From positions 5,022,001 through 5,086,000 of the forward strand of contig CM030332.1 of the NCBI GenBank assembly GCA_017654855.1: a stretch of DNA of 64,000 bases. The letters run 5' to 3'. The stretch's first letter is position 1; each line of letters begins with the position of its first letter. The position numbers and the translations under genes were made by a program. The notes under the pieces were generated by a model. The model saw only the letters and a list, made by a program, of their open reading frames with translations. It did no database searches and was not told the DNA's origin. Origin of the DNA: Podospora anserina (Eukaryota). Of the stretch, positions 9,769-35,217 are shown piece by piece.

Positions 9769-10343
9769 TGTTACAATATAGCTTTTCTTTGTGGATTTTA
9801 CAGTGTATCTAAGCCCTGTATATTACAGGGCCTTAGAGGCAATATAATGGCTTAGATCAGCAGTGTTTAGGGACCACGGTTACCGGAACGGAACTCGGCT
9901 TCCTGAAGCAATCCGAAGTTCCGGAAAGCCGAGCCTTGCAGCGGTTAAACGGTAGCGCAACGTGGCTTGTAACGAGGCTTGCAACTTTATTTTTAGTTAG
10001 CGCACTTAGCGGGCGTTCGGGCCCGGGAACAGAGTCACTTCGGGGAGCGAGTGGAGGGCTAACGGCCTATAAAACCTCTGCCTCACACCCTATTTACTGT
10101 GATATTTCTTAGTCTATAAGGTTCAATCAATATACTAGTTTACTACACTTATTAGTGCCTCACAAGCCTATATTACAGTGATTATCTTCTATATATTACA
10201 GGGCGCCGCCCCTGTAATCTACTTTCCTTTAGTGCCCCGGCAACTATTGAATACTACAGTTAAAATCTTCTTCGCTCTCAGTATATTACGCCGATAGCTA
10301 TTTAAGCCTATATTTACAGGCCTTAATAGCACCTATTTCAACA
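9769..10343 (+). repeat. Short LTR (family D; TGTT...TTTCAACA), apparently split by a second solo LTR (family E, ~9821-10219)
   Basis: Starts TGTTACAATATAGC, similar to the LTR start at 16271 and to an inverted copy at 35162-35217. The inner unit has inverted termini TATTACAGGG/CCCTGTAAT and a TATA box at ~10068. TSDs are not clear. Confidence 0.55.
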
Positions 10344-10393
10344 TTATATAAAGATTATTTTTAACGTAAAAGGTTTATAGAGAAATACTACCT

Positions 10394-13300
10394 TATAACG
10401 AACCCCTATACAGAACCTCTGAAAGGAATATTAATTAAAGGTAACTTCTAATAATTAGTTCGGTGCAGCTAAACAGTGCACAACAAGATATCTCAATATA
10501 AACACTAAATACCGTAAATATAAACTAAATTACATACTGCGGAACTATCTATCTACACCGGCTAGTTCCTCCGTATATATAGACCTTAATCCTTTAGGTA
10601 CTTCCGTACTTAAATTACCTCGATCACTAAGCGCTCCTAGTAATCCATCCTAGCTCACTTTGCTCACCTAGCGCTCCTAGCGAGCCGGCTCACCTCTGCC
10701 AAGAGGTAAGCGCCCCTCTATCCTATAGCCTCGCTTTTATTTATTATTTAATTAGTTACTACGGCCTACTGTAGTCCCTACTTTGCTTTACTATATAGTT
10801 AGTCTATAATATAATATTCCCCCTCTTTATTTTTTATCCCGAAAGATTTGCTGCTATTATTTTTTATACTTTAATACTTTTTTTTTATTTTTATTATATA
10901 TGTATTCCCTTTCCCTTTTCCTTCTTTAGGCTTACTTAGCGTTACTAATTATATTAGGGCGCGTAGAGAAACGTTACTATAATATAGCTCGCGAACGAAT
11001 AGTCCTTTCCGATTCGATCGACTAAGACGGTATTAAAATTATACTTTACTCCCGTTATTAACGCGCGAAACTTTAAGGACGTTATATTATAAAGGAGGGG
11101 TCGAATTGCTATTCGAATTACGTTCGAGTAAATAAATTATATAATAATTCAAACGTAATTAATTTCTATAAATATTTAAGTACCGTAACTATACGTCCTT
11201 TTATTAATAACCGTAATAATAAAAAATTTATCGAAATAAAAAAAGATTAATAATAAAATAATTATAAAAAAAATTTATTAGCCGAAACGTTAAGTACCTT
11301 AACTTATTTACGTAAGTAGCGTACGTCGATACGTAACTAAGGTTTTAAACTCTTTTATCGAGGTATAGAATCGCTAAACGAAGTTAATAGTTTAACGTCC
11401 TTTATAAACTAATTAAATAAATAATATTTTATTAATCGGGCTTAGTTAATAGGTGCCTTTAGAGTCGTGGATTGGAAGGCTATTAATATTATTCCCTCGG
11501 ATCTTAATATTATCCTCGACTCCTTTATTAATTTCGATTAGCCGCCTAACCTTTCCCTAGGCCCGGACGTAGCCGGTCCTTTCTTTTTAACCCTGTAGGG
11601 TACCGCCGATAACCCGTTTTTTATTTCTTAAAGTAATTAAAACGCGTAATACTATTTATATCTAAGTCCCTTTATATTTTTTAATTTCGTAATATAATAT
11701 ATAGTATATCGGTTATTATATTAAAAATATAAGTTCGATTCTTATTAAAGTTCTTTAATATCGAAGTTTATACCTATAAACCTCGATATTAATCTTTTTA
11801 TTTACTTAAGTTTAGGTCGGTCCGGGTATTATTAATAAAATTCTTTTTACTTATCCGGGCAGTTAAGATTTGCCTCTAGTTCCTATAAATTATTTATAGT
11901 TAAATACTTTAACTAACTAATTAAATACTTTAATTAATTTTTATTAAACCGTAAATCTAATATCTTTTTTATATTATACTTTTTTTCTTCGTCCTACGTT
12001 ATTATTTATATATTAACCTTACTTACTGGTAATACGGGTTTTAAAAGTAAGATATAAAAGGTGTATAACCGTAAACGTATCGTACTAGGTAGCTCCAGTT
12101 CGAATATCGTTTTTAAGATTTTCCTTTTAACTTTAAATAGGCCTACTCTCCTGTAGTCCAGCTTCTTATTAAGTCTTTTAGTATATAAATTGCGTATAGA
12201 AAGGAATACTATATCCCCCCTCTTAAAGTAAGGTCCCTCGAGCCTTTTAGTATTATAGTATTTCCGTATCCTTTCCTTTATAAACTCTAGTTTTTACTTA
12301 AGTTTGCTGTAGATTATATATAGTTTATTTGCTTTAACCCTAGCCCTAGGTACCTTAACGCTAAGTCCCTGCCGTAAGTCTGCCTTATATTTAAAGTTTA
12401 CGAAGAACGGCGTAACTTTAATCGTCTCTATTAGTAATATATTATATGCTAATTATACCGTAGGTAACAGTTTAATCTAGTCGTTTTGCTCGAAATTAAT
12501 ATAATTCCTTAAATATACCCCGAGCTTCGTTATTAACGCTTTCCAAAACTTCGATACGAATTTAGTGTCGCGGTCCGTAATAAATTCCTTTAGCTATATA
12601 TATATTAATGTAATATACCGTAGTACTATATCCGTTAATTACTTTACTAATTAGGTTTTTTATAAAGTAAAAAGTATATTTATTTAATAAACTTATCGAT
12701 TACTGTTAATATACTATTATATTTAACGCCGATTACCGTATCCTTAGACTTTAGTAATTTAATAATAAAGTTTATTATAATTAAACTTTATAATTATTTT
12801 ATTATTAGTAATAGCTCTAGAAATCTATAAAGCTTATACTTCGTAACCCTTGTTTTTTCGTACGTATAGTATAATTGGATAGTTTCCTTAACGTCGTCCT
12901 TAATCTTTAGTTAATTAAAGTACTATTTAATTTTTTCTATAATTTTAGCAATATTTATATACCTTCCGAGCTTTAACCCGTAGATCTCTATTACTAATGC
13001 CGTCCTATTATTTAGTATTACGTACGCTCGATTCCTATACTATAGTCTTCCCTAATTATCTTTCTAGATACCTTATAGCTCCAGCTCTTCCTACTAGTAT
13101 TACTCTATAATATCACTACCTAATTTCCTTTAGTATTTATTAAAAATAGCCCTTTCGCGATATACTATATAGTATTCTATTTACGGCTATAGTAAATACT
13201 TAAGGGTACTATTTAGCGCCTCCTCGAGTAATAGTAGTAACTTTCTAAGTATATCCTTATAGTAGTCGGTACGCCTACTAAATACGTTTGCTTTAACGTT

Positions 13301-19200: not shown

Positions 19201-21196
19201 AAATATAAGGAGGATACTATCGTAAAGGTTCGATTAATAATTAAAAATCTTAAAAATATATTTTAATAATATTTAAATTATTTTTATTATAACGGAAGTC
19301 AAGAAATTCTCCCTCTTTAAACTTACTTTATTAAAAAAAGTATTAACTTTAATACTTTAAGCCTTTGTACGTTTAATTAAAATAATTTTATAAAACGGTT
19401 TATTTATATAATTTTAAATAAATTACGTACTATAATATTTACGTTAAAACTTCTTCCTACTCTTTAAAACTATATAATTAATTTTATAATTAAAATAATT
19501 AATTATATAATTTAATTAATTAAAAAGTTTATACTTTATTAAGTTTTCTATAATAAATTATTCCTTAATTAACCTATTTATATACTTAACTTTACTAATT
19601 ATAAAATTATTAAAACTAAAGTTATTATATATATCCTTACTAAAGATCGAGTCTAAAGAAAAAAACTTACTCTTAAAGGAATAAAAAGTAAGTTTTTTAT
19701 AGTCTTTAGTTACTAAACCTATTTAATTTATTTAGGTTTAAATAAAGTTATTAAAATTAATTTTATTAAACTTTATAAAGACCTTTAAATTTAAATTTTA
19801 GGACTATAGAGTTTTATAAATTTATTAAAGATCGTTAATACTACTAAAGATCTAAAAGATTCTTTTATTTAATTACTTATTTTAAAACTAGATTTTAAAA
19901 TTATTATACTTCCTACGCTTATCACGACTATTAAAATACCTTTTCCTTAGGCTATTAAAAACTAACGTAAAGAATTTTAATTTATAAATAAAATAAATTA
20001 TATTAAATTAATTACTTATTTAGTTTCTAGAACCTAAAAAGCTATAGTACTTTAAACTAAAACTATAAAGTTTAATACTTTTAAATAAACTTTAAAATAT
20101 TCTTAAAAGGATTAATAATTAAAAATAGTTTTTACTAAATTATATTAATTCCTTATTATTAAAACTTTTTACTTTATTAATCGCTCTTAAATTAAAAAGA
20201 AATTTATTATTAATCGATAAATCTTTAAAAAAAAAAACCTATAAAGTATTATAGTAAAGTTTAAAGCCCGGTTAATAACCCGTAAATTCTAATAAACTAT
20301 AGGAATCAATTTTCTTTAAACCTATATATTTATTACCGGCCTTCCTACTTAAAGAATTATATTAATTTTAATAATTATTTTTAATTAAAATATTAAATAA
20401 ATAAATTTTATAAAAACTTTTTTTAACTCTAATATAAACTTTAATATATATATTAAATTACCCAAAGGACTACGTAAATACTTTTATAGTACTCTAAATA
20501 TTATTTTACTATTAAAGTAATTTAATTAGGATCTTATAGAGAACTAAGTTATCCTTCTAAAAAAGTCCCTCTATAGTTTAAAATAAACTTTTTACTTTTA
20601 ATAATAAAAAGTTTTAATTATAGTTAAGTTTTTTAGATTTAAACTATTAATTTTTAATACGGCTATATATTTTTATCTAAAGCATACTATATTTATTATT
20701 GTTAATGTGTAGGTACTACTAAATGCCCTACTTACTGCCCTACAGATTGATATTATAGTGGGCAGTACTGCTATAAGCAGTAATGGAACTTCCCGGCTTG
20801 GATCCCTTTAGAATATTCTTTACAAGGGACCCTTAAAGGCTTATAAGGCTACTGTGGCCTAAAGCTTAGTTAATAGATACTAGAACCTTCCAAAGTAGCT
20901 TATAGGCTTACGTAGTAAGTTGCCACAATAGTGTAATTTACAGGGCACCTCTGCTGCCGAAGGTTCTATGGATTTCCGTGAGTCTACACTAGACCCACCT
21001 AAGCCCACCAAATACCCCAAAGTGGTATAGGGGCTTCCAGGGCCTACAGGACCCACAGTAAGCCTACGAAGGCTTATATATAAACCTCTCCTCTCTCCTG
21101 TAGAATAGTTCTCTTTCTTTCCTTAAGGGCAAAAGCTTAAGGCTAAAGCCAAAGGCCAAGGTCAAGGGTAATAAAGGCAATTCTTATTCCTTATAT

Positions 21197-24100
21197 TAGT
21201 TTAGGGTGCGGCTATAGGCCTGAGAGTATGAGTAAGGAAGCGGGGCTCTCAGAGGACTCAGGGGTTTAGGGGTCATATATATAAGCGGTCTGCTTCGGAC
21301 ATTCTATTTTAGACAGGACATCGACTTTTATTCTTTTTTTTGTATTTTATGCCTTACACGCGTGTAGGCAATTCTGGCCCTCTAATCAGGCTAATCCGGT
21401 ACTTATTATATAGCCTGCGAGCCTATAGTGTCTTTTCTTTATCCTACGTAAAGTGCGGCCTGCGAGCGAGTTACTATCACGCAGGTATGTTTATTCTGAG
21501 ACCTGTTAAGGGTATATTTGTAGTGTTGTGGTTGTTTTATATGTTTTTTTACTATTTTAAATGGAGGTCGTACCCGGGTTAAATAAAGCTTAAGGTCTAA
21601 ACTAGACTTATAAGCTTTAGGTACTAGAGGAAGTATAAAATTACGAACGATAATAAGTATTAATAACTTTATTAAATCCCGCGAAGTTTAACGGAAATAA
21701 TTCTTTTTTATTTAATCGGATAAAGTTTTTTTATTATCGACTAAATTCTAAACTTTTTATCCGCGAATAAAAAGTTAAGTATATAGTTTAAATAGGATTA
21801 GGAAGTAAATTAAAAATATTAATTAAAACTAGTTCGTTAATAAATTTTATTTTCGCGTTAATTATTAAAGTCCTCTTTTATTTTTAGTTAGAAGGAATTC
21901 TTTTAATATATTATTTAACGATAGTAAATAATCGTAAGGATTTCCGGGTTAATTTAACTTAGGATATCGGGAACCTAAAAGTAAAGAAACGAAAATACTT
22001 TCCTTTTAATCTAAATAAATATAATTTATATTTATATATTAAAGTTATAAAGGATAACCGTTTTTATATTTTTAATAATATATATAAGGAAAAAACTATA
22101 TTATTAATATAAACGTAATAGTAATTATTGAGTATCGATATATTTAATAATATCCTACTTATTACTTTAGCTAACCTTCCTAGCGATAACTAAGGGTATT
22201 AAGCTCTTACGGCTCGTTCCGTAATAAAAATAACTATTCCGGCGGCTAGGTTTCCGGAATTATTATTATTTGTCCTCTCCCCGGCTACGAACCGCGCTTA
22301 CTTTAAAGATATTAAAACCCCTCGCTCCCTTTTTAATTAAGGTAGCCCGATTATAAGGCCCAACGCTCCTAACGTACTAGGTGGACCTCGTATTTACCTA
22401 AATCCTGCTACTTAAAATTATACTACGCTTCCCACTCGGTATACCGGATATCCCGCTCCTTTTCCTAAATTCGTATATTAATTCTAATAACCCGGATACT
22501 TATATTCTATAAAAGTTTACTCCGACTATCGCTACTTCCAGGGGTCCCTTACGTTTAATTATCTAACCTCTTATCTTATAGTACCTATATATTTTTTTTA
22601 ACGTAAATTCCTTAATTTAAAGAAAGTCGGTTTTAAAAGTAATTTTAAAGGAAAGTATTTTATAAAATATTTAAAGCGTTTCGAAAATACCTATAAAAAG
22701 TATTATATCGTAAAATTTACTTTTCGCGTTTATAAATTTAAATCCTAATATAATTTCGATATAAGAAAATAAATTAACGAATATATAAACCTACCTATAT
22801 TTACCGATACTTAGCTTATCCTAATTATTTACTTTAAACGCTTCTTTAAGATCTATAACCCCCGATAAAATAAAGATATTTATAAGGAATTAAATAACTT
22901 TTACGTTAAAGTTATTTTTAAAAGTATAAGCGAATTAAAGAAAATTATTTTTAATTACTTTAAATTACTTTCTTAAGTACCGACCGAAGAGAAAGAGGTA
23001 ATAAAAGTTAAAATTATTAACCGCTTTTAAATAAAATTCTTCAAATTAATAAGGATAACCTTTATTAACCGAGGAAGATCCGAACGTCGTTTAAAATCTA
23101 TAAATTTTATTACTTAAAGCGATTAAATTAATAATATAATCGAAGATAGGTATAACGTAAGAAAAAAAATCTATAAAAAAAATAAATTAATTATTATACC
23201 CTCCCTTATTACTTTTAATTAAACGGCCGAAATACTTAATTAATATATAGCGGTTAATATTATAATAAATAAAGAAATAGTATTATAGTATTTAAGGGTA
23301 AATATTTATAGTAATTTCTTTATACTAGGAAATAGTAAATTTAGGATAATAAAAACCCACGTTTAATATTTAAAAAACTAAATACTTTATTCCCTAAATT
23401 TTAATATTAATTTTAATAGGGAAATAGATTTATTTTTTAATACTTTCCTTATTATTAATATTAAAATTTAGTTCGGAAAATTAAAGGGGTAGTACCGCGA
23501 TAGCCCTCCCCCACTAAAAAAATACTTCTAGTGCGGTAAGACTAGTTATTACGTTAAATCGATAGAATATCCGAAAAAGGAGTATAATAAAGCGTAAGGA
23601 TTGTGCTATACTAAAGGAAGTAAAGTATATATCGGTAAAAAAAAGTAGCCGGAAAGTAAAAAAGTATAGTTTAATTAAAAAAATATAAGGAAAGTATAGT
23701 ATAAAGGAAAAGTTAATAACTTAGTTTATATTATAATTTTATTAAAACTAAAATTAAATAGGGCCTATAAAGTTTATACGAAATAAGTTAAGTACTAGGA
23801 AATTCGTAAAGGTAAAGGATATAGGCCCGAAATCTTTTTAATTAAAAGGAAAGAGTAAATAGTTATTTAAATAACTAAAGCTATAAATATTAAATTAAAT
23901 AAGCTTTATAAATACTTTAAACCTTACGTACCGTTTAACGAGAATTTAATTAATAATTATATTATTAAAAATACTTTATAACGTTATTTAATAGAAAAGT
24001 GGTCGCTTAAAAGTATTTTAAAACGTTTTAATAATACTTTAATAATCGTTTATAATTAAAAGGTAGAAGTAGGGGTAGGCGTATAAAAAGTAAAGAAAAT

Positions 24101-26400
24101 AAAGATCGAGGATTTACCGAAAAAGAATATAAATAATTTAGCTTTAGCCGAAAATCTAAAAATAATATTTACTTCCGCGTAAAAAAAATTAAAAATAATT
24201 AAGGAAGGAGTTTCGTCCGATTAGGGGAATAAAGTCCGGAGTAACTTAAAGTTATTTAATAGTAAGGTAGAGGACTCTAAAGATTATATTACCGAAAAAA
24301 CTAAAAAATATATTTATAATTAAATTAAATTTATATTAAAAAAATATTATAAGGTTTTACCTATATTTATTTACCGGTTAATAAATTATATAAAAAGTAT
24401 AGCCGAAGATATTAAAGTAATCGAGTAACGTAGATCTTTTAAGAGTACTTTAAATAAAAAAAAAAAATCTTATAAAAGGGAGAGGCCTTACCGTTAATAG
24501 TTCGGACGAATTTTTAAACGGTTAAATATAGTAAGATTCCTCCGTTTAATTAAAGGAAAACTATCCTTACTTTATATAGGATTACGGCGGATAGTAAATA
24601 TAGTATAGTCGAGGAAAGTATTTAAAAGAAGATTATCGAAAGTAAGGTCTAACCGGGTAATAGTTTAAAAGAGCGATTACGGACTTTACTATCTACGCCT
24701 ATTAGCCGGCTTTCCGGTAGTAAGCGAATTTTTCTAGGAGCCGTTACTCGAACCTATAACGTCCTATTACTATATTATAACTTTGTTTTACTAACTTTAA
24801 AGAAAGTATTAGTAATATTAAATATAGGCTCGGAGTGTAACCTAATTAGTAGGACTATAGCTAAGAGGTTTTATCTACTAATAGTATCGACGAACCTATA
24901 ATCTAAAGGCCTTTATAGAAATCCGGTTACGTTTATAGGTAAGACTTAGGCTCCAGTAATACTAACTAGGGTTTTAATTTTATATTATTTCTTCGTTATT
25001 AATAATATTAAAGCTTTAGGTTTCTATAACCTATTATTAAGTATCCCGTTTTTTACGGATATAAACCTTACTTTTAATTTTATAAAGGGCTATATAATTA
25101 ACGTAAATATATTATATAGGGGAAAGCTAATTAAGGCCTATATAATAAAAAAAAAAGTAATTAATAAAATAAAAGCGGAATATAATAGTAGGGATTGAAG
25201 TAATGCCTCTCCTGCTAGCTAACCCTTATAGGTATTTAAGGGATTAATTAATAAAGGAATACCTATCCCTAAGTAAGTAACGGAGGAGCTGGAGGAAGGG
25301 GAAGAAGATAATAAAGTTGTGGATAGCTTATATAAAAAGGTCTTTGGGTTGTAAGCCTAATTAGAGGGTGCGTAATAAGAAATAAAGGAGGAGGGGCTTA
25401 GAGGACTTAATAGACGCGGAAGGATTTAACTTATTAAGTACCTTCTCGTTTCCTTTTAAATTTCTATTAATTCCCCGGTTTACTTCCTTCCCTAATTCTC
25501 CGTTAACTTTAATTACTATTATTAAAGGAAATAAGTATATTATGGGTCTTCCCTTTAATTATAAAGGGTTTAGACTAAGTAGTATATCGAGTAATTCTTA
25601 ATAACTAAGTAGGGTAGTAACCCCCTTTAGGTTCCGCACTCCTATAACAATAAACTTGCCGCTCCTTTCTAGGCCTATAATTACCCGTCTCCCTATTTAT
25701 AACTACTTAGGATCGTTAATAATATACTTTTCGCTTAATTATATATTTAGTTTTATAGGATAAGAGTGGGCTCCTAAAGTTCTTTAGAGACGAAGGGAGG
25801 AAGTCGTTAGGTTACTAATTATAATAGCTCGATAGGGACGAAAGTATACTCTGAGATCCGAAAAGTAAAGGTACTTTTTTCTTTAATTAAGGGAGAATAG
25901 ATAAAGGGATAATAGGATTATATTGTTTTCCCTTCTTTCTACTAAACGATATTTTCTTTTTTTTTATTTATAAAGGATTTTTTTCTTATATACGTATTTG
26001 CCCACTAGTTTATAGTAGTCAAATGCGAAGGGAGGTTTGGTTTGGGGTGCGGCTATAGGCCTAAGAGTATAAGTAAAGAAGCGGGGCTCTTAGAGGACTT
26101 AGGGGTTCAGGGGTTATATATATAAGCGGTCTACTTCGGATATTCTATTTTAAACAGGACATTGACTTTTATTCTTTTCTTCGTATTTTATACCTTATAC
26201 GCGTGCAGGTAATTCTGGCCCTCTAATCAGGCCAATCCGGTGCTTATTATGTGGCCTGCGAGCCCATAGTGTCTTTTCTTTGTCCTACGTAAAGTGCGGC
26301 CTGCGAGCGAGTCACTGTCACGCAGGTGTGTTCATTCTGAGACCTGTTGAGGGTATATTTGTGGTGTTGTGGTTGTTTTGTGTGTTTTCTCACCATTTCA
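21197..26400 (+). mobile_element. Complete LTR element family C (LTRs 21197-21559 and 26038-26400); gag + aspartic protease only
   Basis: Paired ~363-bp LTRs with 4-bp TSD ATAT/ATAC. PBS at 21562-21580 and PPT GAAGGGAGG before 26038. CCHC knuckle ~23520-23570, protease LDTGSECNLIS ~24815-24850. No RT/IN motifs seen. Confidence 0.85.
21562..21580 (+). promoter_or_regulatory. Primer-binding site of element C, tRNA-Gln-like
   Basis: TGGAGGTCGTACCCGGGTT lies 2 nt after the 5' LTR. It is complementary to a tRNA 3' end ...CCGGGTACGACCT-CCA, which resembles fungal tRNA-Gln. Confidence 0.65.
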
Positions 26401-28892
26401 ATACCTTACTGTATTACAGTGCTTTACCTTCCTTCGGCACTGCCGTTGTATCCTCCCGCTTCCGCTTCCGCACTGCTGTATTTTACAGCAACCCTGTATA
26501 GGTTCTATATTATAGGCCTATCAGGGCTTACCAGCTAACAGTTATATATTATATATTTACTTTAACTTTATTACGGATAAATTAAAAGTATTAAAATAAT
26601 ATTATAGCCGGAAACGTTAGTATTTAGGGAGGCTCCACCTAACTTATTATCGATTAGCTTCTCGCTTATATTTAAGAGCTTAAGAATAAATTATACCTTT
26701 CTTACGATACCTTTACGTAAAAGAACGTTATACTCTATTAAGAGATTGATATTTTATATAGGGAGGGAAAGTATATTAAGCTCGAGGTACCCGATCGCTA
26801 TAGAGGTATAAAAGGAGAGCTAAGAAGATTCTTAATTTAATTTAAAGTTTATTTTCGGTACTATCCTTTTTATTTTCCAGATAAGGAATCTAAAGTTATA
26901 TACGCTACGTTTAAACTTAAAGATATAATATTTATATAGTTCGAACCGATTTTAGGAGACTATTTTAATAATATGTATAACGAGAGGGAGGATATTACTA
27001 AAATATATTTTAAATTATATAAAGACTTTAAAAAGAAAATTAAGGAGGTATTTAAAGAGTATAACGAGGGTAAGCGTATTTAGGAACGACTAACTAACTT
27101 TAAGTAAATTCGATTTACTACCGATTACACTATAATATTTAGGACGGATATATTTTGTAGCGCGATTAACGATAAAAGATTAATATAAATATTTTATAAT
27201 GGGTTTAAGGAAAAAGTTAAAGATAAATTATATCGAATAGAACGACCGGAAACTATTAATAAATATATTATAATAGTAATTTATATTAACGATTAATAAT
27301 ATTAACGTTATAAAGAGCGTAAGGGTATATACGTATAAGGACCCTATTACTTTAATAATAAAAAAAAGAGACGGCCGTATAAAATTTATATTTTAGGGAC
27401 TATATATATAGGGTCTATAAAAATTAATATTATTTAATAATAAAGGTTATTAAATTAAAATAAAAATAATTTTAAATATTTTAATTATAGTAAGGTAAGA
27501 TATTTTAAGAGGGACTATAAAGTATTTAAGCGATTCAGATAGAAAAAAGAGATTATAATAATTATTATATTAAAGGAACCGAAAGTTATGGAGGTCGTAA
27601 TTATTAAATATTAGTAAAGTAAAGCGAAAAACCGTTATTAAATATATATACGAAAGAATATTAAGTACGTTAAAGATAAAAAATAAAAGGAAATTAAGTA
27701 AATATAATTAAAAAATTTTATATTATTAAATAACCCGAAGTAGGAGGACGTTTTTAAACGATATAATTATTTAAGAAACGATTTACGGCCTTTCGCGGGA
27801 ACCGTTAATCTTTAACGGACTACGAATAGTATTTTCGAAGGTATCGGTATAAAGCGAAGGTATAAAATAACGATCCGACGCTCGTTAGTAAGGTTATTAC
27901 TATATAAGGAGGAGGTAAGAGAGATAAATACTTTTAGGTTATAGCGTATTAAAAAGATATTTAAGTAGTAATATTAATAAATGGCGGTACGGAAACGAAT
28001 TTAATTTTATTATAGTTCGTATATTAAGCTCGTATACTATAAAAAAAAGAAGGAATAAATTATTATATAAAGATTATTTTTTACGTAAAAGGTTTATAGG
28101 GAAATACTACCTTTAGATATTATAGTCAAAGGAAAAATAATTTTAATTATATTTAATATTATAAATATAAAACCCTCGAAGGATATAATCTTAAAGTAAT
28201 TATAGTATAAAAATTATAATTTAAATATCGATTAAAGGGATAGTAATTACTTACGATTAAAAAAGTTTTAAAAGTATTTAGTTAACGATAGGAGATTAGG
28301 AGTACGTATAGAGTAAAGTATAAAATAAGTACCCTCTACGGTATTACTATAAGGAGCTTAAAAAATAATAGTATACTTTATCGATATAAGTAATAAGATC
28401 GAAGAAATAGGGTTAATAACGTTAGTAAAAATATCGGAGGTTAATAAATATATTTATTATAATAAGGTAGAGAAAAGTAAAAAAAAAGCGGTATTAATAA
28501 AATATCGAGGATATTTAGCTTTTATAGTTAAGTATTTAGAGGGACTTTTAAAGTAAGGACTGTAAGACTATAAAATTAAATTAAAAGAAGGAATTAAATT
28601 ATAATTATTTAAGGTTTATTATATTAACGATAAGTAAAGTAAAGAACTACGGAAATACTTAAATAAAAATCTAAAAAAAAGATATATTAAGGAATTTATA
28701 TTATTAATAGGATACCTTATATTTTTTATATTAAAGAAAGATAGTAATTTATAATTATATATAGATTACTGTTAATTAAATAACGAAATAATAAAAAATA
28801 ATTATTTATTATTATTAATATTTAAATTACGGAGTTAATTAGTTAAGGCGTAATACTTTATACACTTAAATATATTTATCGGGTATACTTAT

Positions 28893-29527
28893 TGTTAATG
28901 TGTGGGTACTACTAAGTGCCCTACTTACTGCCTTACAGATTGATATTACAGTGGGCAGTACTGCTATAAGCAGTAATGGAACTTCCCGGCTTGGATCCCT
29001 TTAGAATATTCTTTATAAGGGACCCTTAAAGGCTTACAGGGCTACTGTGGCCTAAAGCTTAGTCAACAGGATACTGGAACCTTCTAAAGTGGCTACAGGC
29101 TTACGTAGTAAGTCGCCACAATAGCATAATTTACAGGGCACCCTTACTACCGAAGGTTCGATGGATTTCCGTGAGTTTACACTAGACTCACCTAAGCCCA
29201 CTAAATACCTAAAATGGTATAGGGGCTTCCAGGGCCTACAGGATCCACAGTAGGCCTACGAAGGCCTATATATAAACCTCTCCTCTCTCCTGTAGAATAG
29301 TTATCTTCTTTCTTTCCTCAAGGGCAAAAGCTTAAGGCTAAAGCCAAAGGCCAAGGCCAAGGGTAATAAAGGCAATTCTTATTCTTTATACCTCACTGTA
29401 TTACAGTGCTTTACCTTCCTTCGGCACTGCCGTCGTATCCTCCCGCTTCCGCTTACGCACTGCTGTATTTTACAGCAACCCTATATAGGTTCTATATTAT
29501 AGGCCTATTAGGGCTTACCAGCTAACA
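28893..29527 (+). repeat. Solo LTR family B inserted in Gypsy A RT
   Basis: TGTTAATG...GCTAACA, 635 bp, with a perfect 5-bp TSD CTTAT. Confidence 0.95.
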
Positions 29528-30263
29528 CTTATATATAAATTAAGGAAGAAGATAAATAAAAAATAGTATTTCGTATACTTTATAGTTATTTTAAATATTT
29601 TATAATATTATTTAGACTAATTAATACGCTTATAATATTTTAATCTCTCGTTAATTATATAATCCGGAAATACCTTAATAAAATAATAATATATTATTTT
29701 AATAACGTTTTTATTTATTTATATACTTTAAAGAAATATAAGCGATACGTACGAAAAATATTCAACGCGCTATACGGAGTTAGATTTTTAATTACTAAAA
29801 ACAAATAAAAATTTTATATATAAAAAATAATATATTTAAAATATTTAATATCGCTAAGTAAAGTTCGTATAGAATTTAAGAAAATTATAGTAATTAAAGA
29901 TTAATTTACGCTATAATTATAAATATACGTTAAGGAATTTTTAAGGTTTATAAATTTTTATCGGATATTTATTTATAGGTACGTAGGAATTACGTAATTA
30001 TTTAATTACTTAATTAAGAAAAACGTAGAGTTCCGGTAGGGGTAAGAGGAAAAATAAGCCTTTTAGGAACTAAAAGAAGCTATTTTAAAGGATTTAGTAT
30101 TTAAATTATTAGACTTTAGTTGACTATTCGAGGTCGAGGTAAATATATTAAACTATACGATCGGTAAATAATTAGGATAGCGAGACGATAATAAAAAGTT
30201 ATACCTAATAGCCTTCTTTTCGAAGAAATTAAAGGAGGTACGTTAAAACTATTTAATCTACAA

Positions 30264-30622
30264 TAGTTTGGGGTGCGGCCACAGGCCTGAGAGTATGAGT
30301 AAGGAAGCGGGGCTCTTAGAGGACTCAGGGGTTCAGGGGTCATGTATATAAGCGGTCGGCTTCGGACATTCTATTTTAGACAGATTATCGACTTTTATTT
30401 CTTTATATTTTGTGCTCTGCACGCGTGCAGGCAATCCTGGCCCTCTGATCAGGCTAACCCGGTGCTTATTATGTGGCCTGCGAGCCCATAGTGTCTTTTA
30501 TCTGTCCTGAGTGAAGTGCGGCCTGCGAGCGAGTCACTGTCACGCAGGCGTGTCCATTCAGGGACCTGTTGAGAGTATATTTGTGGTGTTGTGGTTGGTT
30601 TGTGTGTTTTCTCACCATTTCA
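30264..30622 (+). repeat. Solo LTR family C inserted in Gypsy A RNase H
   Basis: Matches the element C LTRs; 4-bp TSD ACAA. Confidence 0.93.
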
Positions 30623-30969
30623 ACAATAAAAAGTTATTCGCTATTATCGAAGCGTTTAAAGAATAAAAATTATATTTTAATAGTATTAACTACGAAATAT
30701 AGGTTTATACGGATTATAAAAATCTATAATACTTTACTATTACGAAGGTCCTTAACGCGCGGTAAACGTAATAATTAAAGTTTTTTTTAGAATTTAATTT
30801 CTAAACTAATTATAAAAAGGGATCGGAGAACGCTAGGGTAGACGTATTTAACTAGCGAGCCGACTACTATAAAGATATACCTAGGGAGTTACTATTATTA
30901 TTTAAAAAAACGTTAAACGATACTTTTAAATATTTATTTTAATTATAAATAAAGTATTACGTAATATAT

Positions 30970-31601
30970 TATTAGCTAGTAAGCCCTAATAGGCCTATAA
31001 TATAGAACCTATACAGGGTTGCTGTAAAATACAGTAGTGCGTAAGCGGAAGCTGGAGGATACGACGGCAGTGCTGAAGGAAAGTAAAGCACTGTAATATA
31101 GTGAGGTATAAGGAATAAGAATTGCCTTTATTACCCTTGGCCTTAGCCTTTAGCCTTAGCTTTAAGCTTTTGCCCTTAAAGAAAGAAAAAAAACTATTCT
31201 ACAGGAGAGAGGAGAGGTCTATATATAGGCCTTCGTAAGCCTACTGTAGGTCCTGTAGGCCCTAGAAGCCCCTATACCACTTTGGGGTATTTAGTGGGCT
31301 TAGGTGGGTCTAGTATAGACTTACGGAAATCTATAGAACCTTCGGCAGCAGAGGTGCCCTATAAATCACACTATTGTAGCAACTTACTACGTAAGCCTGT
31401 AGCTACTTTAGAAGGTTCTAGTATCTATTGACTAAGCCTCAGGCTACAGTAGCCCTGTAAGCCTTTAAGGGTCCCTTGTAAAGAACATTCTAAAGGGATC
31501 CAAGCCGGGAAGTTCTATTACTGCTTATAGCAGTACTGCCCACTATAATATTAATCTATAGGGCAGTAAGTAGGGCACTTAGTAGTACCCAAACATTAAT
31601 A
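30970..31601 (-). repeat. Solo LTR family B, inverted
   Basis: Reverse complement of 28893-29527; 5-bp TSD TATAT. Confidence 0.93.
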
Positions 31602-32076
31602 TATATTATAAGTAAACTACTTTTAATAATAAATATTAAGGAAGGCTAAGTAACGATATTATTAAGTAATATTAATAGGAAGAATTAAAGTTATAAAGTA
31701 TTTAAAAAAATAATTAGGGAAAACTATAATATAAAAATCGAATATATATAATAATAAGTAATAGAATAATATTAGTAATAAAGATTTATAGATCGAAGCT
31801 CGGTAGATATATAAGTATTGTAAAGATTATAGAAAAAATTAAATAGTACTTTAATTAATTAAGGATTAAGGATAACGTTAAAGAAGCTATTTAATTATAC
31901 TATACGTATGAGAAAATAAAGATTATAAAGTATAAGCCTTACGGATTTCTAAAGCTACTATTAATAATAAAATAATTATAGAGTTTAATTATAATAAACT
32001 TTATTATTAAATTACTAAAGTTAAAAAATATAGTAACCGGCGTTAAATATAATAATATATTAACGGTAGTCGATAG

Positions 32077-32473
32077 TGTCACGGTTCTGGAAGACAGTGG
32101 GGCCACGACGGACCAATCAGGACTGGACCGCGCAATCGAGCGGGGCTCACGGTCCAGGTAGGCAAACGGACCAATCAGATGGGGACCGGGGACCGCGGCG
32201 GAGCTTACGGTCCACGGTCCAGTATCGGCTAATTAGGGGTGGACCGAGGACCGTCTGTAAGTCAACGGTCCACGGTCCCAAGGTCTATATATACGGAGGA
32301 ACTAGCTGGTGTAGATAGACAGTTCCGCAGTATGCAATTCAGCTTGTATTCACGGTATCTAGTGTTTACATTGAGACATCTTGTCGTGCACTGTTTAGCT
32401 GCACCGAACTAATTGTTAGAAGTTACCTTTAATCAGTATCCCTTTTAGAGGTTCTGTACAGGGGTTCGTCACA
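32077..32473 (+). repeat. Solo LTR family A variant, nearly free of RIP
   Basis: TGTCACGG...TTCGTCACA with a perfect 5-bp TSD GATAG. The 5' half has repeated ACGGTCC motifs. Confidence 0.95.
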
Positions 32474-33849
32474 GATAGGCTTACTAAATAAATATATTTT
32501 TTATTTTATAAAGAAATTTAATCGGTAAAGTAGTTAGCGGATATAATATTATAATATATTATATTAATATATATATAACTAAAAGAGTTTATTACGGACC
32601 GCGATATTAAATTTATATTGAAATTTTAAAAAACGTTAATAATAAAACTTAAGGTAATAAATAAAGCGTTATCGGCCTACTACCTTTAAATAAACGGTTA
32701 GACGGAACGGCTTACTTAAATTATAAAATAATATTTACGGAATTATATTAATTTTAAATAAAATAATTAAGTTAAATTATTATTTATAATATAATTAATA
32801 TATAATATATTATTAATTAAAACGATTAAAATTATATTATTCTTTATAAACTTTAAATATAAGGTAAACCTATAGTAAGGACTTAACGTTAAAGTATTTA
32901 AGGCTAAAATTAAAGTAAATAAATTATATATATTTTATAGTAAATTTAAGTAAAAATTAGAGTTTATAAAGGAAAGGATACGGAAATACTATAATATTAA
33001 CAAGCTCGAAGAACCTTACTTTAAAGGAGGAAATATAGTATTCCTTTTTATACGTAATTTACGTATTAAAAGACCTAATAAGAAGCTAGACTATAGGAAA
33101 GTAGGTTTATTTAAAGTTAAAAAAAATATCGGAAACGGTATTCGAATTAAAACTACTTAATACGATACGTTTAAAATTATATACTTTTTATATTTCACTT
33201 TTAGAATCTATATTACCGGTAAGTAAGGTTAATATATAGATAGTAGCGGAGGATAAAGAAAAGGAATATAATATAGAAGAAATATTAGATTTATAGTTTA
33301 ATAGAAATTAATTAAAATATTTAATTAATTAATTAGGATATCTAATTATAAATAATTTATAGGAATTAAAGGTATATTTTAATTACTTAAATAAATAAAA
33401 AAAATTTTATTAATAATACTTAAATTAATTAAAGCTTAAGTAAGTAAAAAATTAATATTTAAATTTACGAGTAATATTTATAAATTTAAATACCGAAAAA
33501 CTTTAGTAGGAATCAAATTTATACCTTCGACGTAATAATCGATGTACTATATATTATATTACGAGATTAATAAGTATAAAGAAATTTAAGCTTAATTAAT
33601 ACCGTATGCCTTTACCGTAATAAAAAAAAATTAAAAATATATTATTAACGAAAGAACTAAAAAGAACCGTACTTAAATTACAGAAAAGGATTTATAAACT
33701 TAAATATAAAAGAACCCTAATAGGAGTCGAACCTATATTTTCGACGTAATAACCGACGTACTATATATTATATTATAAAATTAAAAAGTATAAAGAGACC
33801 TAAATATAAATAGTACCGTATATTTTAATTACTTTAAAAAGTAAAAGGT

Positions 33850-34540
33850 ATATTATTAATAATATTTTACGGAGTTAAAAAAGAAGGACCGGCCGTATTA
33901 AGGTCTAAAGGAAGGTTGGAAGGCCAGTCAAAACCTAAGGAAAGATCTAAAAAAGAAAAGTCGAAAGGACTTAAGGAAGTAGGATTAAAAGAAAAAGCGT
34001 CGTTAAATAATAAAATAACCGGCGCGACTTACGTAACTTCCTTCTATTTAATACGTTCGGTAGTTTCTAACTTATTAAGAGAAGAGAGGCCGCGGGTAAC
34101 TATAACGGCTCTTTTATTTATAAGAAACTTACGTTAACGACGGACCCGCGATAAACGAACTAAAGCTTTAAAAGCTTTTTACTAATACTCGATTAAAAGA
34201 GTTTCGGTACGTTTCTTTTCTTTTTAAAGATAATATTACTCTCGCATAATTTTATTTCTTAAAAAAAGATTAGTAAAAAAAAAAGAGAGGTAACGGGAGA
34301 CTTACGTAATAAAATAGGGACACCGGTACTATTATATAAACGACTATAATATACGTAAGCCTTATAATACTTTACTTTATTTATTATATAGTAAAATAAT
34401 CTCTATAAATTATATTATAAGTAAAGTATAACGAGGAAACCGTTTTTAATAATATTTTAAGCGAGTTTAATATAATACTATATAAATAATAATAAAGGTT
34501 TTATTATAGATATAGCGTTAATTAGGCTATTAAAGAATAA
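33850..34540 (-). pseudogene. Antisense extra ORF of Gypsy A copy 2 (Zn2Cys6-like + coiled coil), RIP-inactivated
   Basis: De-RIP of 34429-34322 reads MPCSWCDSQGLSCRMMDGVKRCKACVRRGRSCDGTG. Downstream reads LVRLSRVRRQRKFL..KGAVMVTRGLSSLDELE. Boundaries approximate. Confidence 0.7.
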
Positions 34541-35006
34541 AAAGGAAGATTTATAAAGAAAAAAGAGGAAACGAAAAGAATATATATAGTCAATAAAACT
34601 AGGCTAACGGGACGTTAACCTAGAGGAGGGGCATTATATTACGGACCTAATATAAGTGGGGAGCGCGGGGCGCGACCGTCCAACTATTAGAACGGAAAAG
34701 TAGGGAAATCGGATTATTATTAGTATTAAAGGTAATAATTATAATTATTACTAGCCTTCGATAAACGATAAGTAATAATCGATATTATTATTAGTAATAA
34801 TAGTAATAAACCGGTCTATATATACGGAGGAACTAGCTAGTATAGATAAATAGTTCCGCAGTATATAATTCACAGCTTATATTTACGATATCTTATGTTT
34901 ACATTAAGACATCTTATTATACATTATTTAGCTGCACCGAACTAATTATTAGAAATTACTTTCAACTAGTATCCCTTTTAAAGGTTCTGTACAGGGGTTC
35001 GTTACA

Positions 35007-35161
35007 AATTCACAATTGTATTTACAGCATCTTGTATTTACATCGAGATATCTTATTATGCACTATTTAGCTGCACCGAACCAATTATCAGAAGTTACCT
35101 TTAACCAGTATCCCTTTCAAAGGTTCTATACAGGGGTTCGTCACAACAGGGGTTCGTCACA
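35007..35161 (+). repeat. 3' part of a further family A LTR, ending in a 16-bp tandem duplication
   Basis: Matches 34868-35006. ACAGGGGTTCGTCACA occurs at 35130-35145 and 35146-35161. Confidence 0.85.
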
Positions 35162-35217
35162 AATATATAAGGCTCAGATACACTGTAAAATCCATAAACA
35201 AAAGCTATATTTTTATA
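35162..35217 (-). repeat. 5' end of family D LTR, inverted
   Basis: 35162-35211 is 45/50 identical to the reverse complement of 9775-9824. Confidence 0.7.

Follow-up and report, generated by a model that had tools for sequence, protein, structure and literature searches.

The 64,000-nucleotide stretch of the Podospora anserina genome analysed here (the window; assembly GCA_017654855.1, contig CM030332.1, positions 5,022,001 to 5,086,000) carries a dead copy, altered by repeat-induced point mutation (RIP), of a real, spliced gene that runs antisense to a Gypsy retrotransposon. We judge this element, hereafter copy 2, to be crapaud-like by its features and not by its sequence. The antisense gene is conserved, under purifying selection, exchanged as a cassette among element copies, and paired with short repeated words in the U3 part of the long terminal repeat (LTR). 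Judging from these sequence patterns, its zinc-cluster protein probably binds the word array of its own LTR in some role, and by analogy with the foamy-virus protein Tas it may well be a subfamily-specific trans-activator of that LTR.

An antisense gene that is spliced, conserved and under purifying selection

A search of the genome (35.96 Mb, 9 contigs) with the stretch returned 23 matches, among them a little-mutated relative, L009, from which the window copy is separated by 397 transitions in the RIP direction, 36 in the opposite direction and 29 transversions, with 987 identities. A previous interpretation made without database searches, hereafter the sequence-only reading, had reconstructed a Zn2Cys6-like cluster in a gene at 33950..34440 and quoted a basic and an acidic stretch after it. 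L009, unreconstructed, displays exactly C-x2-C-x6-C-x8-C-x2-C-x6-C, so that the pattern needs no reconstruction, and both stretches are likewise present in it as read. At the six Cys positions of the seven heavily mutated copies of the same type (type A, see below; the window copy included), all 42 of 42 codons encode Tyr. A gene indeed lies where it had been placed; its limits were drawn too narrowly, the true span being 34513-33825 with an intron and a helix ahead of the cluster. The difference in reading frame between cluster and coiled coil is due to this 47-nt intron.

Although its DNA is unalignable, the type-B gene is interrupted by an intron of identical position and phase, and, judged by eye, an intron at this place was present in 14 of 14 metagenome loci inspected. 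Annotated relatives in other fungi share 71% (Chaetomium globosum CHGG_04275), 75% and 84% identity with the type-A protein, and in annotated relatives the intron stretch is either absent, as in P0002 and P0003, or carried unspliced. By hand count, the integrase lies downstream on the other strand in 18 of 25 metagenome loci, the other seven contigs ending near the gene.

With regard to selection, exon 1 of two little-mutated type-A copies differs by 11 synonymous and 3 replacement changes, a ratio of nonsynonymous to synonymous rates (dN/dS) of 0.075 (p=1.3e-5), and the tail by 5 synonymous and 5 replacement changes (dN/dS 0.36). A profile search of 1.84 billion representatives yielded 1531 clusters at E<=0.001. 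In 127 full-length relatives, conservation of the six Cys is 98-99%; 70 of these relatives have the exact 2-6-8-2-6 spacing and five have no match to C-x2-C-x6-C-x5..12-C-x2-C-x6..8-C; the mean net charge of the relatives' tails is -5.7 over the last 50 residues. With stops read as X, the profile of the relatives had matches in antisense frames for 27 of the 31 genome copies, covering 8 of 9 types, and none in the sense frames of these copies. The selection at protein level proposed in the sequence-only reading is thus borne out by the dN/dS value and the conserved Cys.

Two further features accompany the gene. L065 (427-5850) is a 5.4-kb type-A element, internally deleted and little altered by RIP, whose two LTRs are identical, and exon 2 of its antisense gene holds one frameshift and one stop. 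In addition, the stop of the antisense gene is followed, about 45 nt further on and on the same strand, by one or two sequences resembling tRNAs (54 and 38 bits with Rfam) in four of five genome copies scanned and in neither of two metagenome loci; these sequences could set the 3' end of the antisense transcript or block read-through from pol.

Cassette exchange and protein-word pairing

The window holds a second element, copy 1, which shares 78-82% identity with copy 2 over gag-pol and cannot be aligned with it over the antisense open reading frame (ORF) zone, where the sequence-only reading had seen the two barely align. Among 36 sources examined, 31 had both this zone and a 3' LTR, and nine groups could be told apart by their ORF zones (A, 10 copies; C, 5; D, 4; E, 4; B, 3; F, 2; G, H and I, 1 each), copy 2 belonging to the common type A (10 of 31) and copy 1 to the rarer type F (2 of 31). 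Nine U3 types coincided with the nine ORF types in 30 of 31 copies, an agreement reached by 0 of 10000 label shuffles, so that the co-variation of the ORF with the 5' half of the LTR, suggested previously from two copies, extends to the whole set; in the exception, L016, the type-A U3 part holds a type-D LTR inside. R-U5 forms a single group in 31 of 31 copies, and the last 130 nt of the ORF are common to 30 of 31. Transversions in the integrase amount to 1.65% within types and 1.52% between them (25 rows), and approximately unbiased (AU) tests (27 rows, four dropped) rejected monophyly for type A (p=0.003), type C (p=0.001) and all types (p=0.0007), which points to old cassettes exchanged on one backbone. 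These comparisons support ORF types that are old and exchanged: since type A shares 71-84% identity with proteins of other fungi, compared with about 30-40% among types inside the genome, the cassette appears to be swapped, as one half of the earlier proposal had it, and not fast-evolving, as the other half had it.

In every readable U3, GC and CCAAT boxes stand near the polypurine tract, and copies of a short word, often in inverted pairs, form an array beside the TATA box (words are given as written on one strand). The words that beat 300 shuffles at k=6 were GTGAYAA in type A (8 sites), CGGTCC in B (9-10), TCGATCC in C (5) and CTGAGC in G (6), and the 8 type-A words of the L009 U3 were reached by 0 of 300 shuffles. 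In L065, the type-A word occurs 16 times, 8 per LTR and none in the interior. The type-D array did not beat the shuffles at k=6 or 7, and the copies of types E, F, H and I are RIP-mutated; little-mutated solo LTRs showed the words TAGCA for D, TGATC (then mostly A or G) for E, GTGAGC for F, TAGATCC for H and ATGATCC for I.

The solo LTRs also displayed other combinations. In L039, L153, L047, L162 and L165, distal U3 and array come from different types, indicating a crossover inside U3. L110, L147, L127, L165, L068, L130 and L141 are solo LTRs whose U3 belongs to none of the nine types linked with an ORF; in all, 24 of 124 distinct U3s were left unassigned, and one type among them bears the word common in metagenome elements. 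In L077 and L082, a type-F or type-B 3' LTR is preceded by a type-D LTR; the two may be insertions that happen to be neighbours or else unlike LTRs of a single copy.

A metagenome scan yielded 25 loci, for which 21 U3s were examined. Arrays of related words were present in 20 of the 21, the remaining U3 ending before the array; GTGATCC was found in 16, the type-A word in two and GTGAGY in two, and the words make up one related series across U3s that cannot be aligned. L086 and L090, the two U3s with the type-A word, belong to the two loci with type-A proteins (80% and 79% identity to L009). L090 and L091 are alike in leader (87%), distal U3 (83%), downstream DNA (83%) and R (81% of local score), and unlike in the ORF (51-65%) and the array (62%, with a shuffled background of about 50%). 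L090 and L009, in turn, share protein type (79%) and word, their leaders being 55% and their distal U3s 37% alike. Protein and word are therefore two separate blocks that vary together, with the spacer shared in the first pair and replaced in the second, and plain contiguous linkage is not enough to account for a pairing that holds across shared or replaced DNA alike.

Regarding the protein itself, PF00172 scored 14.3 bits on the type-A sequence, under the curated cut-off of 21, and reached E<=0.01 in 16 of 127 relatives, and the best Foldseek matches of the predicted structure were Zn2Cys6-DNA complexes. The homodimer model scored 0.40, compared with 0.00 for the best control, with contacts agreeing to at least 57% and pLDDT of at least 74; among solved pairs, 21 of 30 from microbes and 17 of 29 from eukaryotes attain this mark, as against 0 of 23 and 0 of 30 single chains, respectively. 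The coiled coil, of about 65 residues, was modelled antiparallel. The loop position that contacts bases in Zn2Cys6 factors is Lys in Gal4, Asn in Pho7 and His in Put3 (PMC6265462). Type A has Gly at this position, and among 96 relatives with regular loops Gly was found in 40, Asn in 17 and Lys in 14. In these proteins the second loop is basic, and the first, which reads CGG in Gal4-type factors, is variable and usually lacks the contact residue.

AlphaFold predicted a helix at residues 9-24, ahead of the cluster, which is kept in frame (Arg14 84%, Leu17 81%, Ile21 80%); at its residue 10, Lys stands in 46% and Ser in 28%. We compared 15 lineages, one representative each, drawn from 20 rows: Lys occupied residue 10 in all 11 with a word ending in TCC and in 0 of 4 others, and any column did equally well in 18 of 1365 relabellings (p=0.013). 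L102 has a cluster near that of the TCC group (57-61%), yet its helix (S-T-L-R) and its TGAGC word are as in type G. P0002 and P0003 carry Ser as residue 10 in a helix of type A. The five types outside the test fit as well, D, E and F excluding Lys and having a main word without the TCC end, and H and I reading Lys and having the TCC end; the check on H and I was planned before their unmutated LTRs were known. The pair of trans factor and cis site put forward in the sequence-only reading is thus indirectly supported by co-variation beyond linkage, in the metagenome elements and at residue 10, the binding itself being putative.

Candidate role of the protein and competing explanations

The proposed activation would begin with host factors at the CCAAT/GC part of the 3' LTR, which would drive a low level of antisense transcript. 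The protein would dimerise via its coiled coil and bind the word array in LTRs of its own subfamily, with a specificity that would depend mostly on the helix ahead of the zinc cluster and not on the Gal4-type loop, and its acidic/aromatic tail would raise transcription of genomic RNA, creating a positive loop like that of Tas. Protein and array would travel together because the two must match, pol and R-U5 recombining freely, and such co-travelling pairs would explain the many LTR subfamilies.

Several points weigh against this proposal. Within the Podospora genome alone, linkage and functional pairing cannot be told apart. A chimeric assembly of one of the contigs compared is possible; the same pairing is seen in L086, from another assembly. 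The residue-10 column was chosen post hoc, RIP is able to create a Lys codon from others, and the lineages tested may be non-independent: in a tree of cluster and coiled coil, those without Lys occupy three spots, and a single clade was not rejected (p=0.29).

This last point leaves room for the possibility that the arrays bind host factors and the ORF travels by mere adjacency, the protein doing another job such as nuclear import or particle assembly, since the lineages without Lys may be a single clade. Crossovers between ORF and U3 would be rare because the two adjoin and, within the genome, are unalignable between types. The type-A word moreover contains a consensus for GATA factors; against a host factor of this class, three of the nine type-A sites in L090 have C at a position at which GATA sites require T. 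As reasons for the diversity of U3, the crapaud paper names either chance recombination or host promoter selection (PMC10787394). Hitch-hiking nevertheless sits poorly with an ORF and array that co-vary across a shared, 85%-identical spacer and stay paired when it is replaced, and with words that form one series, tracked by residue 10, across unalignable U3s. We therefore regard it as unlikely, if still a serious contender.

A self-repressor, binding its own array for copy-number control or immunity so that new types escape resident repressors, would draw on the same pairing evidence as an activator, and has its analogue in the immunity regions of lambdoid phages. Many old types on one pol backbone are expected under negative frequency-dependent selection, and the sites stand directly against the TATA box. 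The conserved acidic/aromatic tail and the arrays of 4-10 sites upstream of TATA, which resemble an activating sequence, speak for activation instead, and repression seems to us distinctly improbable. Less probable again is an anti-silencing role, in which the protein, bound to its own word, would prevent heterochromatin from forming on the LTR: the targets of VANC are likewise tandem repeats that differ between related elements (PMC5735166), whereas VANC acts throughout its element and the type-A word is confined to the LTRs of L065; homology with VANC is not expected. Finally, the idea that a spurious ORF arose from reading RIP-mutated DNA on its reverse strand, suggested by a window copy with many stops and no Cys, is refuted by natural copies unaltered in frame, the dN/dS of 0.075, the 1531 clusters and profile matches in antisense frames only (27 of 31).

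Returning to activation by the antisense protein, we tentatively extend it as follows. A variable pre-cluster helix on an antiparallel rod could be a new way of reading DNA for the Zn2Cys6 scaffold, in a family of more than 1500 clusters (at 50% identity) that provides private channels between protein and promoter, and the exchange of such pairs on one pol could create and keep the LTR subfamilies of crapaud and of many fungal Gypsy elements. If so, fungal chromoviruses would encode a Tas-like regulator with switchable specificity; crapaud U3 diversification would be explained and genes of the brtn type (see below) would gain a testable function; the pairs would constitute a natural library of small orthogonal proteins and sites; and fungal annotations would include many transposon genes listed as short hypothetical genes of the 'Zn(2)-C6' kind.

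Setting in the window and comparison with known systems

The window between 10 and 36 kb is an AT-rich, RIP-mutated block of nested LTR elements (Table 1). The domains rve, SH3_Tf2-1 and Chromo were found in L009, which identifies it as a Ty3/Gypsy element with a chromodomain, and the antisense gene sits between integrase-chromodomain and 3' LTR. Copy 1 matched the family profile at E=1.2e-10 (stops read as X). Among the insertions that break gag-pol of copy 2 is a type-B solo LTR (about 32077-32473), and LTRs or repeats of other families are nested in or around copy 2 at 21196-21560, 26037-26401, 28889-29525, 30266-30623 and 30972-31636. The 3' LTR is followed in tandem by a second partial R-U5 and another short LTR end (35007-35160). 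A 50-nt inverted repeat (9775-9824 and 35162-35211), possibly the ends of a larger DNA element, flanks the entire 25-kb RIP-mutated block.

Table 1. Coordinates of copy 2, its antisense gene and copy 1 (window positions unless stated otherwise)
Feature	Position	Strand	Remarks
gag-pol of copy 2	about 26777-33616	+	RIP-mutated; 5' LTR missing; broken by insertions
Antisense gene, type A	start equivalent 34513, stop equivalent 33827-33825	-	read by hand from L009 alignment
5' leader of antisense gene	34514..34636	-	overlaps polypurine tract
Exon 1 (N-terminal helix and six-Cys cluster)	34306..34513	-	RIP-dead; gap-free alignment to L009 1332-1539
Helix before cluster, residues 9-24	34442..34489	-	candidate specificity helix; AlphaFold, coordinates by hand
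Residue 10 of pre-cluster helix	34486-34484	-	candidate specificity position
Zn2Cys6-like cluster	34334..34423	-	Cys-equivalent codons start 34423, 34414, 34393, 34366, 34357, 34336
Intron, 47 nt	34259..34305	-	phase 1, GT-AG; donor intact, acceptor mutated in window copy
Exon 2	33825..34258	-	long coiled coil with conserved basic stretch, then acidic/aromatic low-confidence tail
tRNA-like sequences	about 33782-33712, about 33570-33500 (L009 2064-2135, 2283-2353)	-	
Polypurine tract	34622-34631	+	
3' LTR of copy 2	34637-35007	+	U3 and TATA/R-U5
U3 of 3' LTR, type A	34637..34816	+	GC box, CCAAT box, then 8-word array beside TATA (RIP-damaged)
TATA box and R-U5	34817..35007	+	common to all types
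Copy 1, 3' LTR and type-F antisense gene	10393..11641	+	3' LTR 10393-10811, reversed

With regard to known proteins, the Zn2Cys6 factors (Gal4, Ppr1, Put3, Hap1, Pho7; PF00172) have the Cys spacing of the antisense protein and the two short helices and following coiled coil of its predicted structure; the antisense protein departs from them in its length of about 200 residues, its extra conserved helix before the cluster and its candidate sites, mostly without CGG. The coiled coil of Gal4 is parallel, unlike that of the modelled dimer.

The Boty element carries an antisense gene, brtn, which is reportedly transcribed and spliced. Like the gene described here, it belongs to a fungal Gypsy element, where it occupies the interval that separates the chromodomain-bearing pol from the 3' LTR, and the passages that cite it (PMC7264820, PMC8365987, PMC4227169) give no function, zinc cluster or pairing with LTR type; the likeness noted here is one of position. 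Our protein relative searches turned up no record named brtn. An antisense gene at this position is therefore already published, and our literature search found no description of a zinc cluster, protein-LTR pairing or residue code; what is new here is the ORF-word pairing beyond linkage and the residue code.

Crapaud, an element of the Podospora anserina complex described from 1455 LTRs of seven genomes in 14 subfamilies, is a Gypsy element with a chromodomain in which variation is limited to U3 before TATA and the 3' half of the LTR is conserved (PMC10787394). The copies studied here likewise have a U3 variable up to the TATA box and a conserved 3' LTR half, and like crapaud they are very abundant, the TATA-R pattern having 179 exact matches in the genome. 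The accessible portion of the crapaud paper draws two ORFs, lacks the words 'antisense' and 'zinc' and assigns no cause to U3 diversity (PMC10787394).

Transcription of LTR retrotransposons is commonly attributed to host factors, and what antisense accessory ORFs do is described as an open question (PMC7264820). Among regulators encoded by mobile elements, VANC of the Arabidopsis VANDAL elements (PMC5735166) resembles the antisense protein in being element-encoded and in having family-specific repeated targets, binding in our case being proposed; it differs in belonging to a DNA transposon and in acting by DNA demethylation across the element, whereas the words here are confined to U3. Foamy-virus Tas, encoded on the sense strand of animal retroviruses and expressed from an internal promoter, is a functional analogue with no homology implied. 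It is an element-encoded DNA-binding dimer with an acidic activation domain and U3 response elements (PMC3798896), features proposed here for the antisense protein. Tas and its response elements diverge between viruses, as the antisense protein and its candidate sites do between LTR types.
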